DNA of 64,000 bases. Source: Acidobacteriaceae bacterium. Lineage in GTDB: Bacteria; Acidobacteriota; Terriglobia; Terriglobales; Acidobacteriaceae. The translations under genes and the position numbers were made by a program. The notes under the pieces are model-generated. The model did not search any database. It was not told where the DNA came from and saw only the letters and a list, made by a program, of their open reading frames with translations. Shown in pieces: positions 12,069-51,579 of the stretch; within the stretch, counting starts at the first letter, position 1; every line of letters begins with the position of its first letter. The stretch covers positions 10,870 through 74,869 of the forward strand of contig JBEKWE010000001.1 of assembly GCA_049513335.1 (NCBI GenBank). Direction: 5' to 3'.

Positions 12069-12317
12069 ATGTCACAGGGATTGGAAAGCAAATCCGTAGA
12101 AAAGCAGCAAATGCAGACCCCGGCACCCCGGCAAGACAAAGCAGTCGCCCAGGCGCACGAGGCCGAGCGCAAGCGGCAACGCCAGGCACTCGAACTCCAG
12201 CGCGAACGCATCCTCTCCGAGCGCACCGCCAGCCCGCACCGGCGCACCGCACTGGCCAACGCGCTGGCCGACATCGAGGAAAAACTCGCCGAACTCGGCT
12301 GGACCATCCACCTGTGA
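12069..12317 (+). CDS. small coiled-coil hypothetical protein
   Basis: Coherent helical ORF; TAAAAT 6 nt before ATG. Confidence 0.7.
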   Translation: MSQGLESKSVEKQQMQTPAPRQDKAVAQAHEAERKRQRQALELQRERILSERTASPHRRTALANALADIEEKLAELGWTIHL

Positions 12318-15080: not shown

Positions 15081-15818
15081 TCAGGCGTTGTGCAACGGCG
15101 ACGCCGAGTGGCGCTGCACAAAGTGATACGGCGGCCAGGGGCCGGACAACTGCATCCGGCACTCCTTCATCTCCAGCGTCGCCGACGAGTACTTGTTCTG
15201 ATACCGCTCCACCGTCTTGTTATCAATCAGGTGGGCGATGTCCAGCAGCATCTTGCCCGAATCCGTCCGCTTGCAGGTGATCTCCTCCGCGATGGGCAGG
15301 AACATGCGATGCATCTGCACCGACAGGGCGCGGGCCCGCGATTGGCGCTCCCTCTGCCGGGCTGCGCTCTCGCGCAGGCTGGTCAGGTACTGCTGGCCAA
15401 CCGTCATGTCGCGCGCTGCGTTGCCCGGACAGGTGTCGTCCATCAGAACCTTCAGGTGCATCTCCGCCTTGCCACGCAGTCGCTCCACATTCGCCGTAAA
15501 GTGCCGTTGGTTCGAGCGGACCGACCGGCGCAGCGCGTCATCGTCTGGAAAGGTCGTGCCAAAGCGAAAGGGAAGCACGGTGGAAAGTTTAAAGCAGTCC
15601 GCAATCACGCGACCGTGGTCCTTGACTGCGCTCTGATCCATCCGGGCAGCGTCTTCCGGTGTGTGTTCAGAGACAATGACGGCGAGATCACTTGCTGGAA
15701 ACAGGAAGGTCTGGTTGCCAAAAAGACCGGTAACTCCGGCGAGCGGCATTGGACGGCGGTGACGACAAAGCTCAGGAAAGGCGTTTCGTTCTGCAATGCA
15801 GTAGGCGTACCAACTCAT
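15081..15818 (-). CDS. GvpL/GvpF family protein (orphan)
   Basis: YAYCI, TVLPFRFGT, E-x-x-LKV, SGPWPPYHFV. Confidence 0.85.
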   Translation of the reverse strand: MSWYAYCIAERNAFPELCRHRRPMPLAGVTGLFGNQTFLFPASDLAVIVSEHTPEDAARMDQSAVKDHGRVIADCFKLSTVLPFRFGTTFPDDDALRRSVRSNQRHFTANVERLRGKAEMHLKVLMDDTCPGNAARDMTVGQQYLTSLRESAARQRERQSRARALSVQMHRMFLPIAEEITCKRTDSGKMLLDIAHLIDNKTVERYQNKYSSATLEMKECRMQLSGPWPPYHFVQRHSASPLHNA

Positions 15819-16250: not shown

Positions 16251-19200
16251 ATGAGTCACGAAAACACGACAAATACGCCCCCTCAATCGCTGCCGGAACC
16301 GCCTGCCCAGCCAGCCGCGGAAGCAGCCGCCGGCAATCTTCCCAAGGCCTACGATCCCTCCATCATCGAGCGGCGTTGGGCCGAATACTGGGTCCGCGAG
16401 CGCCTCTTCGACGTGCCGACGCCAGCCACAAAACCAGGTTCTCCATCCATGGAGCGAAGCGACATGGGTGGGAAGAGCAAAGAGAACTTCACGCTGCTCC
16501 TGCCGCCACCCAACGTCACCGGACGTCTGCACATGGGCCACATGCTCAACCAGACGGAGATGGACATCCTCACGCGTTGGCACCGGATGCGTGGCGAACG
16601 AAGCCTGTGGGTTCCCGGCACCGACCACGCCGGCATCGCTACGCAGATGATGGTCGAGCGCCAGCTCGCAGCCGAAGGCACCAACCGCAAGACCCTCGGC
16701 CGCGAGGCCTTCAACGCCCGCGTCTGGGAGTGGAAGAGCCAGTATGGCTCCGCCATCACCGACCAGATGCGCCGACTCGGAGCTTCTGTAGACTGGTCGC
16801 GCGAGTACTTTACCATGGACGACCGCCTCTCGGTCGCGGTCAAGGAGGCCTTCGTCCGCCTCTACGAGCAGGGGCTGATCTATCGCGGCAGCTACATCGT
16901 CAACTGGGACCCCATCCAGCAGACCGCCGTCTCCGACCTCGAAGTCACGCATGAAGACCGCCTCGGCAAGCTCTACCACATCCGCTACCCCTTCGCCGAT
17001 GGCACCGGTTCCATCGTCGTTGCCACCACGCGTCCCGAAACCATGCTCGGCGACACCGCAGTCGCCGTAAACCCGAACGACGAGCGCTACGCAGCCTTCA
17101 TCGGTAAGCTGATCTCGCTGCCCTTGAGTGGAGTCAGTGGTGGCCCAAACCGTGAGATACCCATTCTCGCCGACGACTGGGCGCAGCCCGAGTTCGGTAC
17201 CGGCGCAGTTAAAGTCACGCCTGCGCACGATCCCAATGACTTCGCCCTCGGCCAGCGCCACTCGCTCCCGTCGCTCACTATCCTCGATGAAACCGCGCAC
17301 GTCGCGCTGCCCGGCTCACCTTACCATGGCCTCGACCGCTTCGCCGCCCGCAAGCGCATCGTCGCCGACCTCGAAGCCGCGGGCCTGCTGGTTGACGCCC
17401 GCGATCACAGCCTCGCCATCGCGCTCTCGCAGCGCTCCGGCGCCGTCATCGAGCCGCGCCTCTCCATGCAGTGGTTCCTCGCCGTCAACAAGCCAGTGAG
17501 CGAAACCAGACCTTCGGTCGCCCAGACCGCCATCGACGCCGTTCGCGACGGCCACATCAAGTTCACCCCAGAGATGTACCAGAAGATTTACATGGAATGG
17601 ATGACCAACATCCACGACTGGTGCATCTCACGCCAGCTCTGGTGGGGCCATCGCATCCCGGCGTGGCACTGCACGGCCTGCCGCGCCATCACCGTTGCAC
17701 ACGAGACGCCCACTGCCTGTGCCACCTGCGGGGCTGTCGACATCACCCAGGAGACTGACGTCCTCGACACCTGGTTCTCCTCCGGCCTGCTGCCGTTCAC
17801 CGTCTTCGGCTGGCCCGGAACACAAGAACCAAAGGCCACCGAAACAATTCGCAAGTCCGCCGAAGCAGAGGGTAAGTACATCCGCCAGGTGGGCGGGACC
17901 GGCAACTACGGGCACGTGAAACTTCGCGTGTCTCCAAACGAGGCTGGCAAAGGATTCGCTTTCTCCAACGAGACAGCCCCGCACACTCTGCCGGAAAGGT
18001 TTATCCAGCCGATACGCGAAGGGATACAAGAAGCGCTGCGGGGAGGCGTCGTCGAAGGGCATCCGCTCGTGGACATCACCGTCGCTCTTTTCGATGGCAG
18101 CTACCACGAGACTGACTCCAACGAAATGGCGTTCCGAATCGCCGCGTCAATCGCATTGAAGGAGGCCGCGCGAAAAGCCCAACCTGTAGTGCTGGATCGC
18201 GCCTCAAACCTCGAACCTACACATCTGCGCAGTCACGGCAATCTGCTGACCCTCGAACCCACCCCGAACCTCGAACCTCGAACCTCGAACCTTACCCCTG
18301 ATCTCGCCGCCTTCTACCCCACCTCGCTTCTCGTCACCGGCTTCGACATTCTCTTCTTCTGGGTCGCGCGCATGATTATGTTCGGCACCCACTTCATGCT
18401 CGACGTGCCGATGCCAGATGGCTCGTCGCACACGCTTGCCGGTGCGGTCCCCTTCAAAGAGGTGTATATCCACGCCCTGGTGCGCGACGCCGACCGCCAG
18501 AAGATGTCCAAGACCAAGGGCAACGTCATCGACCCCATCGAGATCATCGAGCGCTTCGGCACCGACGCCGTCCGCTTCACCCTGGCCAGCATGGCCTCGC
18601 CCGGCACCGACATCGCCTTCTCCGAAGCCCGCACCGAAGGCAACCGCGCCTTCGCCAATAAAATCTGGAACGCCGCCCGCTTCCTCTTCATGAACCTCGA
18701 CCGCGCCCGCGAAGCTGGCATCCCCGTTGATCGCATCCTGCGAACTTCTGTCATCCTGAGCAGAGCCGCTCAGCGAGCTGGATTCATATCAGGAGCCGAT
18801 CAGGGTACACCAAGTCTCTCTTCTGAGACGTGGGAAGACGTTCCACAAACTCCCCTCGAATCCAGCTGGATTCTCGCCCGTCTCTCCCAAACCGCCGCCG
18901 CCGTCAACGCCTCTCTCGCTGAATACCGCTTCGACGAAGCCGCCAACCACGTCTACCAGTTCTTCTGGGGCGACCTCTGCGACTGGTATCTCGAAATCGT
19001 CAAACTTCGTCTCAACTTTGGCGAGGCCGACGACAAGACCGCTGCCGCCGCTGCGCTCGCCACTCTATTTCATGTCTTCGAATCCGCCCTTCGCCTGCTG
19101 AGCCCTTTCATGCCCTTCCTGACGGAAGAGATCTGGCACGCCCTTTACGCTGGCGCACCACCCGCGAAATCGATCGCCCTCACCAGCTACCCGCAAGCCT

Positions 19201-19739
19201 CCGACTACCCTTCCGACGAAGCAGCCATAGTCGAGATGCGTGATTTGCAGTTCCTGACTACCGAGCTACGGGCGATCCGCAAGGATTTGTCCATACCCGA
19301 GGGACAAACCTTTCCAGGGTATGTCCTTGGCGTAAATATGGGGGATGCAAAGACAGGGATTCTACGTACGCCGGGAGACTTGCTCTCTGCTCACAGCGAT
19401 ATATTGGGACGGCTGACTCGGGTTAGTCCTATACAAGAAGTGGGGGCCCAGGAGCGCTATGGCAGCCTTTCCAGTCTCTCCTGGCGTCAAGGATTGTTCG
19501 AGGTAGCACTTCAATACCATAAGAAGATCGATGTCCCCGCCGAGCGCGAGCGCCTCACCAAAGACCTCGCCAAGTATGAAAAAGGTCTTGCCGCCGCCGA
19601 ACGCCAGCTCTCCAACGATTCCTTCATGTCCAAAGCTCCAGCGCATATCGTCGAAGGCCTGCGCAAGCAGGCCGCCGAGACCCGCACCGTCTACGACAAG
19701 ACCAAAGCAGCCCTCGACGCGCTGCCACCCAACAACTAA
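16251..19739 (+). CDS. valS: valine--tRNA ligase with in-frame EF-G domain IV insertion and REP-derived loops
   Basis: PPPNVTGRLHMGH, GTDHAGIATQ, TTRPETMLGD, DWCISRQLWWGHRIP, DTWFSS, KMSKT, C-terminal coiled coil; 1162 aa is unusually long. Confidence 0.97.
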   Translation: MSHENTTNTPPQSLPEPPAQPAAEAAAGNLPKAYDPSIIERRWAEYWVRERLFDVPTPATKPGSPSMERSDMGGKSKENFTLLLPPPNVTGRLHMGHMLNQTEMDILTRWHRMRGERSLWVPGTDHAGIATQMMVERQLAAEGTNRKTLGREAFNARVWEWKSQYGSAITDQMRRLGASVDWSREYFTMDDRLSVAVKEAFVRLYEQGLIYRGSYIVNWDPIQQTAVSDLEVTHEDRLGKLYHIRYPFADGTGSIVVATTRPETMLGDTAVAVNPNDERYAAFIGKLISLPLSGVSGGPNREIPILADDWAQPEFGTGAVKVTPAHDPNDFALGQRHSLPSLTILDETAHVALPGSPYHGLDRFAARKRIVADLEAAGLLVDARDHSLAIALSQRSGAVIEPRLSMQWFLAVNKPVSETRPSVAQTAIDAVRDGHIKFTPEMYQKIYMEWMTNIHDWCISRQLWWGHRIPAWHCTACRAITVAHETPTACATCGAVDITQETDVLDTWFSSGLLPFTVFGWPGTQEPKATETIRKSAEAEGKYIRQVGGTGNYGHVKLRVSPNEAGKGFAFSNETAPHTLPERFIQPIREGIQEALRGGVVEGHPLVDITVALFDGSYHETDSNEMAFRIAASIALKEAARKAQPVVLDRASNLEPTHLRSHGNLLTLEPTPNLEPRTSNLTPDLAAFYPTSLLVTGFDILFFWVARMIMFGTHFMLDVPMPDGSSHTLAGAVPFKEVYIHALVRDADRQKMSKTKGNVIDPIEIIERFGTDAVRFTLASMASPGTDIAFSEARTEGNRAFANKIWNAARFLFMNLDRAREAGIPVDRILRTSVILSRAAQRAGFISGADQGTPSLSSETWEDVPQTPLESSWILARLSQTAAAVNASLAEYRFDEAANHVYQFFWGDLCDWYLEIVKLRLNFGEADDKTAAAAALATLFHVFESALRLLSPFMPFLTEEIWHALYAGAPPAKSIALTSYPQASDYPSDEAAIVEMRDLQFLTTELRAIRKDLSIPEGQTFPGYVLGVNMGDAKTGILRTPGDLLSAHSDILGRLTRVSPIQEVGAQERYGSLSSLSWRQGLFEVALQYHKKIDVPAERERLTKDLAKYEKGLAAAERQLSNDSFMSKAPAHIVEGLRKQAAETRTVYDKTKAALDALPPNN
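17841..18197 (+). other. EF-G domain IV-like insert within ValRS
   Basis: ETIRKSAEAEGKYIRQVGGTGNYGHV...GKGF...GIQEAL..GVVEGHPLVDITVALFDGSYHETDSNEMAFRIAASIALKEAARKAQPVVL follows the EF-G domain IV consensus end to end. Confidence 0.93.
18202..18292 (+). repeat. CTCGAAC heptamer tandem repeats in frame in valS
   Basis: cctcaaacctcgaacc and ccccgaacctcgaacctcgaacctcgaacc, translated NLEP...NLEPRTSNL. Confidence 0.85.
18749..18834 (+). repeat. two REP-like remnants in frame in valS
   Basis: TGTCATCCTGAGC (18749) and GGGTACACCAAGTCTCTCTTCTGAGACGTGGG (18803-18834), 28/32 identical to intergenic 55809-55840. Confidence 0.8.
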
Positions 19740-19787
19740 CAACCATCAACCTGCAACCGCCAACTCCGACGTAGAATCGAATCCATT

Positions 19788-22477: not shown

Positions 22478-23239
22478 ATGAACTACTTCAACTACTTCAC
22501 CGAGATTGAAGAGCGCTTCCAGCAACGCCGAGGGGCGCTGCTCATGCTCTCCACACTCGACTGGGCGCTCATCGAAACCTGGCGCGAGGCTGGTGTTCCG
22601 CTCGAAGCCGTTCTGCGCGGCATCGATGCGGCCTTCGACAAGCACGACGCCCAATCCCTACGCCGCATCCGTCGCCCGCGCAAGGTCAACGGCCTCGCTT
22701 GGTGTGCACAAGCTGTCCTCGAAGCCGTCGAGCAATCCCGTGAAGCCGCCATCGGCGCCGCATCCCCCGCAGCCGAGCCCTGCGAATCCGGCTTCGATGC
22801 CGTCCGCATTGCGCGCTACCTCCAACAAAACGCCGACCTCCTTACAGCCGCCGCCGCCAATCTCGCCACCCCTGCCGACACCGCCGCCACCCAAGCTGCC
22901 ACCCGCCTCCGCGAACTCGCCAACCTCAATGAAACGGCCTCGTCCATAGAACCTCGCACTTCGAACATCGAACCTCGAACCTTGAACCTCGAAGAACTCG
23001 ACCGCACTCTTACCGTCCTCGAAGAAAAACTCTTCGCCGCGCTCCTCACCTCGACACCAGAGGCCCAGCTTGTTGCGCTGCGCGAACAGGCCGCGCGCGA
23101 ACTTGCCCCCTACCGAGGCAAGATGCAGGCCGTCCAGATCAAGCAAGTCCAGCAGCAGTTCCTCCAGAAGCGCCTGCTCGAAGCCCACTCGCTCCCGCGC
23201 CTCAGCCTCTTCTACATGTCCCACGAAGACCAGGTCTGA
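22478..23239 (+). CDS. conserved hypothetical protein with in-frame heptamer array
   Basis: MNYFNYFTEIEE...LPRLSLFY with host codon usage; contains IEPRTSNIEPRTLNLE. Confidence 0.75.
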   Translation: MNYFNYFTEIEERFQQRRGALLMLSTLDWALIETWREAGVPLEAVLRGIDAAFDKHDAQSLRRIRRPRKVNGLAWCAQAVLEAVEQSREAAIGAASPAAEPCESGFDAVRIARYLQQNADLLTAAAANLATPADTAATQAATRLRELANLNETASSIEPRTSNIEPRTLNLEELDRTLTVLEEKLFAALLTSTPEAQLVALREQAARELAPYRGKMQAVQIKQVQQQFLQKRLLEAHSLPRLSLFYMSHEDQV

Positions 23240-42960: not shown

Positions 42961-43058
42961 CGCCGTCCCACCCCAACTCCAAAGTTTAGACGCATCTCGC
43001 CAGGACCCGCACCTCGAACCTCGTACCTTGTACCTCGAACCTAGTACCTTAAGTACAG

Positions 43059-45558: not shown

Positions 45559-45668
45559 AGCACTCACCGCCGCATCCGGCGCGCATATAAGAACGCCCCG
45601 TGCAGTCCACACTTCTGTCTCAATTGCTTCTCTAAGATTCTACATTCCGTCACTCTCGAACCTCGAAC

Positions 45669-51521: not shown

Positions 51522-51579
51522 TGTATCTGTCTTTCAACCTCGAACCTCGCACCTCGAACCTATTGCCGATAATGGAACC

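Follow-up and report, generated by a model that had tools for sequence, protein, structure and literature searches.

An elongation factor G domain IV nested within the valyl-tRNA synthetase of an Acidobacteriaceae bacterium

RESULTS

An insert of about 158 codons in valS

We analyzed a 64 000-nucleotide stretch of contig JBEKWE010000001.1 (assembly GCA_049513335.1; hereafter, the window) from a soil acidobacterium of the Acidobacteriaceae, a family of free-living bacteria with genomes of 3–6 Mb. Our subject is valS, a stop-free open reading frame of 1162 amino acids on the forward strand (16251–19739), which encodes valyl-tRNA synthetase (ValRS) and hosts a nested domain IV of elongation factor G (EF-G). 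Downstream of the DTWFSS motif (residues 506–511), about 158 extra codons stand between GWPG (G523, 17817–17819) and LTPDLAAFYPTS (L681, 18291–18293). A first-pass annotation, made from the letters of the window alone, had placed the insert here and had read within it a complete domain IV with both tip loops (RQVGGTGNYGH and DGSYHETDS) and the boundaries ETIRK...PVVLD at 17841–18197; re-translation reproduced the length, coordinates, loop sequences and boundaries exactly.

Read from 5′ to 3′ on the forward strand, the insert has three parts. The first is the N-side junction with its short linker (GTQEPKA, G523–A529, 17817–17837), delimited by an alignment of nine carrier junctions and by a local model confidence (predicted local distance difference test, pLDDT) of about 64. 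The second is the complete domain IV (residues 530–648, 17838–18194), with loop I RQVGGTGNYGH and loop II DGSYHETDS, on which profile matches, a phmmer alignment, structure prediction, fold comparison and substitution rates all bear. The third is a C-side tail (residues 649–681, 18195–18293), predicted to be disordered and delimited by pLDDT, Tandem Repeats Finder (TRF) and the carrier alignment; it contains heptamer array A (18207–18218), a unique 32-nt piece coding for HLRSHGNLLT (18219–18250) and heptamer array B (18251–18292). Within array B, TRF calls a repeat at 18261–18292 (period 7, 4.6 copies, 96% matches), and the CTCGAAC array that had been noticed by eye behind the insert is thus real. 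ValRS then resumes with TPDLAAFYPTSLLVTGFDI (18294–18350), the next helix and β-strand of the Rossmann fold (helix 683–688 and strand 691–696 in the AlphaFold2 (AF2) model), a segment that is invariant or nearly so across all carriers and non-carriers.

Profile searches place the insert in a single family. Pfam EFG_IV (PF03764) matches residues 530–644 (17838–18182) across profile positions 6–121 of 121 (E = 2.4e-33, 114.9 bits against a cut-off of 24), and the ValRS families are matched by the same protein, as the two-family composition proposed in the first-pass annotation predicts. The NCBIfam EF-G family TIGR00484 matches the insert only at profile positions 482–602 (141.5 bits against a cut-off of 659.4), and phmmer aligns it to residues 474–602 of Thermus thermophilus EF-G (E = 7e-38), with 50–51% identity. 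A Pfam scan of the protein found neither the G domain nor domains II, III and V. The insert is an EF-G fragment and not an EF-G, and it cannot be a translocase.

The host protein otherwise has the composition of an ordinary synthetase. It scores 1095.8 bits against NF004349 (NCBIfam valine--tRNA ligase, cut-off 704) and 923.6 bits against TIGR00422 (cut-off 612.1), the latter matched in pieces that flank the insert on both sides. The Pfam set comprises tRNA-synt_1, split by the insert, an editing-domain match, Anticodon_1 and Val_tRNA-synt_C, and the translation shows the class Ia signatures LHMGH and KMSKT. No second gene in the assembly, which is 85.7% complete, exceeds the TIGR00422 cut-off. 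From the intact motifs, the single-copy status and the purifying selection on the body, we infer that the enzyme would valylate tRNAVal and edit threonine. It differs from the canonical enzyme (T. thermophilus, 1GAX) in its GWP-to-FYP linker, which is about 158 residues long here; other long linkers have 20–40 residues of low complexity.

Pfam and NCBIfam scans of the protein found no Hint or intein family, and the junctions, G|TQEP and SNL|TPDL, are without Cys/Ser/Thr nucleophiles; on both grounds we rejected an intein or other self-excising insert.

Predicted structure

The whole protein was modeled with AF2 from an alignment of 147 sequences (12 carriers, 90 diverse ValRS and 45 EF-G domain IV pieces), giving a mean pLDDT of 88 and a predicted template modeling score of 0.84. 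Among known folds, the model most closely matches the T. thermophilus ValRS–tRNA complex 1GAX (TM score 0.87, normalized by target length). Along the insert, pLDDT is 83–97 for residues 530–648, falls to about 64 at the N-side junction and is below 50 for residues 652–678. When modeled by itself, the insert has a pLDDT above 90 for 106 residues, and Foldseek superimposes it on domain IV of solved EF-G chains (E = 1e-19 to 1e-17) with a root mean square deviation of 0.9–1.1 Å over 119–120 residues. The predicted structure thus has the EF-G domain IV fold (T. thermophilus structures 1DAR, 2BM1 and 1FNM), including its β-β-β-β-α-β-α-β order and the tip loops with Gln, GNY(G/A)H and GSxHxxDSN. According to the models, a whole domain IV that folds on its own is held by a short N-side tether and a long, disordered C-side tether of about 30 residues.

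The host loop runs from the short helices after DTWFSS to the strand SLLVTG (in FYPTSLLVTG). Because it precedes a strand of the class I Rossmann fold, it should sit on the face opposite the active site. We found no account of the structural position of this ValRS loop in the open-text literature. A complex prediction, in which the two halves of the ValRS body and the domain were supplied as separate chains, scored 0.00; it was run without controls and is evidence neither way.

The fusion in other genomes

A fusion found in a fragmented metagenome-assembled genome (232 contigs, 85.7% complete) invites the explanation that reads from valS and fusA were joined during assembly or binning, or that the gene is a dead valS pseudogene. 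The canonical fusA of this genome could seem to favor such an error, as only a 35-residue stub of it remains, at the end of a contig (117:7716–7817). Yet the identical 1162-residue protein occurs on 24 contigs deposited at NCBI, JGI and ENA, and when residues 500–700 were searched against 5.8 billion proteins, 12 ValRS clusters had EFG_IV at the same site and the same junctions, 51–100% identical in that region; the matches ranked below them were ordinary EF-G only. PF03764 is present in the precomputed annotation of all 12 clusters. A second genome of the genus (G013) has an EFG_IV insert at this site in a valS of 1180 codons. The frame is open, the ratio of nonsynonymous to synonymous substitution rates (dN/dS) is about 0.1, and the enzyme has a full ValRS equivalog score.

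Sequence distance argues in the same direction. The insert is at most 66% identical to any EF-G found. Since the canonical fusA of the host is a stub, its relatives in the genus were used for comparison: their EF-G domain IVs are 56–63% identical to this insert and at most 58% identical to that of G013. The only full EF-G-like gene of the assembly (contig 85:4754–6862) is 40% identical to the insert and scores 608.8 bits against the EF-G cut-off of 659.4; it looks like an EF-G2-type paralogue, and we rejected it as donor or chimera partner. A chimera with the host's fusA, one of the outcomes by which the first-pass annotation would have been overturned, does not agree with an insert this far from both host and genus EF-G, and an artefact is effectively refuted and can be set aside for practical purposes. 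A scan of genome contigs for further carriers found EF-G genes only, and matches that seemed to reach into a ValRS flank proved to be ordinary EF-G.

Origin of the captured piece

We placed the inserts and EF-G in a phylogeny of 94 domain IV sequences. A starred clade unites 11 inserts, and the twelfth joins them in a single group with 87/89 support (recovered in 86% of bootstrap trees); with a reduced set of sequences, the group of 12 has 94/90 support and is present in 96% of bootstrap trees. By this phylogenetic evidence, the inserts share a single origin. The nearest EF-Gs are the canonical factors of Acidobacteriaceae (records named Granulicella, Terriglobus, Edaphobacter and Terracidiphilus), which are 60–66% identical to the insert, and the first 16 residues of its EF-G-derived part (ETIRKSAEAEGKYIRQ) are identical in some of them. 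The capture of a fusA fragment, which had been proposed from the letters alone, is supported by this identity and by the shared start. Insert branches are about 10 times longer than those of real EF-G. The trees include one EF-G (L013) and one non-carrier ValRS (L051) from an unpublished genome (G009), and a second unpublished genome (G490) appears only in a match list; no conclusion depends on either.

The ends of the captured piece can be placed approximately. On the 5′ side, fusA of the genus encodes NVGKPQV[NA]YRETIR, and two carriers (P0006 and P0009) retain GK.Q before TETIR; the linker GTQEPKA is probably a decayed remnant of GKPQVxY, which stands before RETIR in EF-G. On the 3′ side, the G013 insert ends at PVLLE, while for the remaining inserts HMMER extends the EF-G alignment about 10 residues into domain V. 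From the retained GK.Q and this continuation, the captured piece probably reached slightly past the domain boundary. At LLEP, where the first-pass annotation had noted a resemblance to the heptamer, fusA of the genus reads CTCGAGCC and the heptamer reads CTCGAACC; the heptamer-coded SNLEP motif is also present in this loop in two relatives that have no domain (G496 and G528). Capture through microhomology between LLEP and the heptamer is plausible but unproven.

A hypervariable, repeat-prone loop

The insertion site is normally short. Among 79 diverse ValRS representatives, surveyed for inserts at this loop, exactly 28 residues separate DTWFSS from GxDIxFW in 56; low-complexity sequence adds 20–40 residues in a few others, and none has a domain. 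Closer relatives are more variable. The SNLEP-type peptides of G496 and G528 are coded by the same CTCGAAC heptamer, and other tandem heptamers (CAGCAAC, ACGGACA, AACTGAG and CTCACAA) occupy the loop in relatives of the genus (among L036, L041, L042, L044, L045 and L057). Two complete genomes have unrelated inserts at the same site: one of 71 residues in G002 (L024:2297–2569), and one of about 30 low-complexity residues in G004, coded by GGGAAGA and CTCCCTA repeats (L025:2671–2817). We rejected the 71-residue insert as a decayed EFG_IV (hhalign probability 0.4%). The loops of G478 and G491 hold peptides resembling those coded by repetitive extragenic palindromes (REP), TERSEGSESPHF and SRSEAEGS; as they look REP-type, we rejected them as EF-G remnants and did not count them as deletion scars.

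The loop also changes length within carriers. The C-side tail is conserved as a peptide in eight of the nine carriers for which we had DNA (the exception is P0012), its length varies in 21-nt steps, and P0010 has lost exactly the piece between arrays A and B that its sister P0003 keeps. These differences indicate that repeat-mediated in-frame deletion occurs in this loop.

Repeats are a wider feature of the gene and genome. The CTCGAAC array at 18261–18292 belongs to a genome-wide family, (CCTCGAA)n, with 38 arrays of at least two exact copies and 751 single heptamers where about 339 are expected. Arrays typically have about four units, one of them a variant (CCTTGAA, CCTTGTA or CCTAGTA), and they occur in intergenic DNA and, apparently, also in frame within open reading frames. 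Besides 18261–18292, the window contains arrays at 22962–22989, 43010–43042, 45655–45668 and 51536–51561, and one on contig 7 of the genome (G000, 12093–12148) has eight copies. A 7-nt repeat within an essential reading frame can change only by steps of three units, which makes this an odd site for slippage-prone DNA. A different heptamer, CCAACAA (3.3 copies, 19729–19751), covers the final valS codons and the stop. Two more segments of the ValRS model have low confidence (pLDDT < 60; residues 60–75 and 835–860, about 16430–16475 and 18745–18835) and coincide with REP-like in-frame inserts, such as the peptide VILSRAAQRAGFISG. Thus, valS has gathered several kinds of inserted repeat.

Distribution and history of the insert

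The insert is rare and scattered. It is carried by two of 217 species of the genus (G000 and G013) and by none of 400 other genomes of the family, drawn from 142 genera. Among the 120 protein clusters closest to the N-terminal body (77–89% identical), four carry it, and the nearest non-carriers are 88–89% identical. In a careful ValRS tree of 12 carriers and 29 non-carriers, built with the loop removed, the carrier label changes nine times, at least five of these changes being forced by starred branches, and carrier monophyly is rejected (ΔlnL = 492; approximately unbiased test, p-AU = 1.4e-5). For the 123 codons that flank the insert on each side, a DNA tree requires eight label changes, and no bootstrap tree has only one.

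Such scatter could arise if a young insert were spreading as a mobile cassette among valS alleles, by homologous recombination through the conserved flanks. The scatter on both trees agrees with this explanation, and so does a mosaic structure of valS itself: P0001 and P0002 are 87% identical in the N-terminal body and 72% in the C-terminal body, in comparison with 91% and 93% for P0002 and P0005, which points to within-gene recombination among lineages of the genus. In addition, insert and body disagree marginally on one deep trio of carriers (p = 0.034). However, a young insert should be less diverged than its host, and this is not observed. The divergence of the insert (synonymous rate dS from 0.65 to above 1.8; 42–85% amino acid identity) equals or exceeds that of the body in nearly every carrier pair and is never clearly smaller. 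A hitch-hiking test, based on synonymous differences in windows along valS, found no excess similarity between carriers beside the insert (FF/FN 0.95–0.98). The sister pairs supported by the body are also not rejected by the insert tree. Recent spread by recombination is consequently an unlikely explanation.

These three observations, namely the divergence, the lack of hitch-hiking and the retained sister pairs, favor instead an old capture that has been passed down with valS and repeatedly lost. That the changes were losses and not gains is the less certain part: the marginally incongruent trio runs counter to strict inheritance, and the data do not separate gain by recombination from repeated loss.

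Selection, codon usage and conserved residues

We estimated dN/dS by the Nei–Gojobori method for the nine carriers with DNA, and the ranges cover estimable pairs only. The ratio is 0.07–0.19 for the insert and 0.08–0.40 for the ValRS body. By this measure, purifying selection on the insert is as strong as on the enzyme that contains it, and the first-pass suggestion of selection, made from the intact frame and loops, has held in these nine lineages. The insert's dN is similar to that of the N-terminal body or up to twice as high, and in most pairs its dS is about 1.0–1.8, compared with 0.5–0.9 for the body. The codon usage of the insert differs from that of the valS body, as had been noticed in the window: its GC content at third codon positions (GC3) is 0.67, compared with 0.83 in the N-terminal body, and across all nine lineages the ranges are 0.53–0.67 and 0.83–0.90. 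The combination of lower GC3 and higher dS suggests either that selection on codon usage is weaker in the insert or that the insert is older than a homogenized body.

EF-G domain IV is known as the tRNA-mimic domain, and the tip residues of its loops I and II act at the decoding center. We defined 67 EF-G-invariant columns, each with conservation of at least 95% among 82 related EF-Gs. In carriers, 33 are kept, with most tip residues among them, two have a new fixed residue and 17, about a quarter, are variable; the conserved GG before IPKEYI is lost. At the tip, every carrier has GNY and DSN, and 11 of the 12 have the Gln of loop I and the His of loop II. The copy in the window has every EF-G-invariant tip residue, while G20, G25, D86, Y89 and V92 (numbered in the domain alignment) vary across carriers.

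There are two ways to understand a domain that is both constrained and sporadic. It may be a passenger, captured without a function of its own and kept folded because an unfolded guest would harm the sole ValRS of the cell, so that the domain could be lost neutrally only by a clean in-frame deletion. Carriers would then show strong purifying selection, and clean losses would recur. The patchy distribution, with relatives at 84–89% identity that have short linkers only, fits this explanation, as do the relaxed EF-G-specific invariants, the elongated branches, the GC3 and codon bias below those of the body in every lineage, the disordered tethers, the strongly drifted G013 copy, and the unrelated junk in the same loop of relatives (REP-like peptides, other heptamer repeats, and the 71-residue and roughly 30-residue inserts). 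It is less readily reconciled with a dN/dS as low as or below that of the catalytic body, with the persistence of the domain in at least 12 lineages, despite synonymous divergence to saturation and in a loop that clearly undergoes deletions, and with solvent-exposed tip residues (the Gln and His) kept in 11 of the 12 carriers. Alternatively, the domain may have been retained for a use of its own.

DISCUSSION

A captured domain with a possible accessory role

Our favored reading, to which we give a probability of only about 0.4, is that the insert is an old fusA capture, repeatedly lost, that now serves as an optional accessory module with an RNA- or ribosome-contacting tip. A piece of canonical Acidobacteriaceae fusA, running from just before RETIR to just past PVLLE and thus comprising domain IV and a few codons of domain V, would have been captured once into the hypervariable, repeat-prone surface loop of the ValRS Rossmann fold. 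The enzyme has remained a normal-looking ValRS, with its catalytic, editing and anticodon-binding domains and its C-terminal arm. The insert would then have been inherited with valS under purifying selection and lost repeatedly by in-frame deletion. A domain that is inherited, selected and repeatedly lost is best described as an optional accessory rather than as part of the aminoacylation mechanism. It would no longer serve translocation; its constrained tip may contact an RNA helix or the ribosome, and so provide a weak tether between ValRS and the translation machinery. A constraint as strong as that on the enzyme, persistence through saturated synonymous change in a deletion-prone loop, and conservation of exposed residues that are functional in EF-G all speak for such a role.

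Several observations weigh against it. As judged from close relatives that have only short linkers at 84–89% identity, the domain is clearly dispensable, and most close relatives do without it. Because it is nested in an essential enzyme, the purifying selection could stem from the need to stay folded alone. The 17 variable EF-G-invariant columns include the loop I glycines and the D, Y and V of loop II. The G013 insert is without the loop His and is only 42–53% identical to the other inserts. The net charge has not shifted toward that of an RNA binder (−1.8 for the insert, −1.0 for EF-G). Finally, in an assembly that is only 85.7% complete, a second valS is not absolutely excluded. Taken together, an accessory role and a functionless, trapped domain fit the data about equally well, and the latter is only slightly less probable.

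A more specific proposal is that the nested domain IV enters the ribosomal A site or decoding region, or grips a tRNA–mRNA helix, so that ValRS would be parked on translating ribosomes or would sense their state. We consider this version doubtful. Were it true, bacteria would have a covalent equivalent of the eukaryotic complex between ValRS and elongation factors, coupling the supply or quality control of Val-tRNA directly to elongation.

The genes around valS bear on another proposal, already raised in the first-pass annotation. They are nadC, birA, a GvpL/GvpF-like gene and an OmpA-family gene, all of them housekeeping genes or without relation to ValRS. If the displayed domain IV were a decoy or a sensor, it would titrate or detect a toxin, an antibiotic-resistance factor or a phage protein that targets EF-G domain IV or tRNA. 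Binders of EF-G domain IV do exist, with FusB–EF-G structures among the Foldseek matches, and the patchy distribution under purifying selection provides circumstantial agreement. The neighbors, however, include no linked defense or resistance gene, the tip has drifted from the EF-G consensus, and we know of no domain IV-binding partner in Acidobacteria. A decoy or sensor is improbable. The GvpL/GvpF-family gene, of the gas-vesicle type, lies directly upstream of valS on the reverse strand (15081–15818) and adjoins valS in two other carriers as well (L027 and L031).

Relation to known systems

Transfer RNA synthetases are known to acquire appended domains. A full-text literature search uncovered no account of a tRNA synthetase that carries an EF-G domain, in agreement with the first-pass statement that no such enzyme was known; as far as these searches reach, an EF-G piece nested within a synthetase's catalytic fold is undescribed. 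The insert shares its profile, fold and tip loops with domain IV of EF-G, and it differs in standing without the G domain and domains II, III and V, inside another enzyme. The ribosomal protection proteins Tet(M), Tet(O) and Otr(A) also reuse an EF-G-type domain IV outside translocation, and their families match the insert weakly (E = 1e-9 to 1e-10); in contrast, they keep the whole EF-G architecture and its GTPase, and the insert is far closer to true EF-G. In mammals, ValRS forms a non-covalent complex with eEF1H, binding the EF-1 (EF-Tu/Ts-type) factor through an N-terminal GST-like extension. In both cases a valyl-tRNA synthetase is joined physically to elongation machinery, but here the partner is a translocase domain nested covalently in the catalytic fold, and there is no homology between the two solutions.

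Implications

If the domain does no more than travel with its host, it would be a clean natural example of an essential enzyme tolerating a whole foreign domain, showing how selection can keep a guest folded while repeat-rich loops create and erase inserts; such an example would be useful for engineering domain insertions into synthetases. In either case, nature has provided pairs of alleles with and without the domain, at 84–89% identity, for direct comparison. Should the domain still contact RNA or the ribosome, then tRNA charging in bacteria would be physically and directly linked to elongation.

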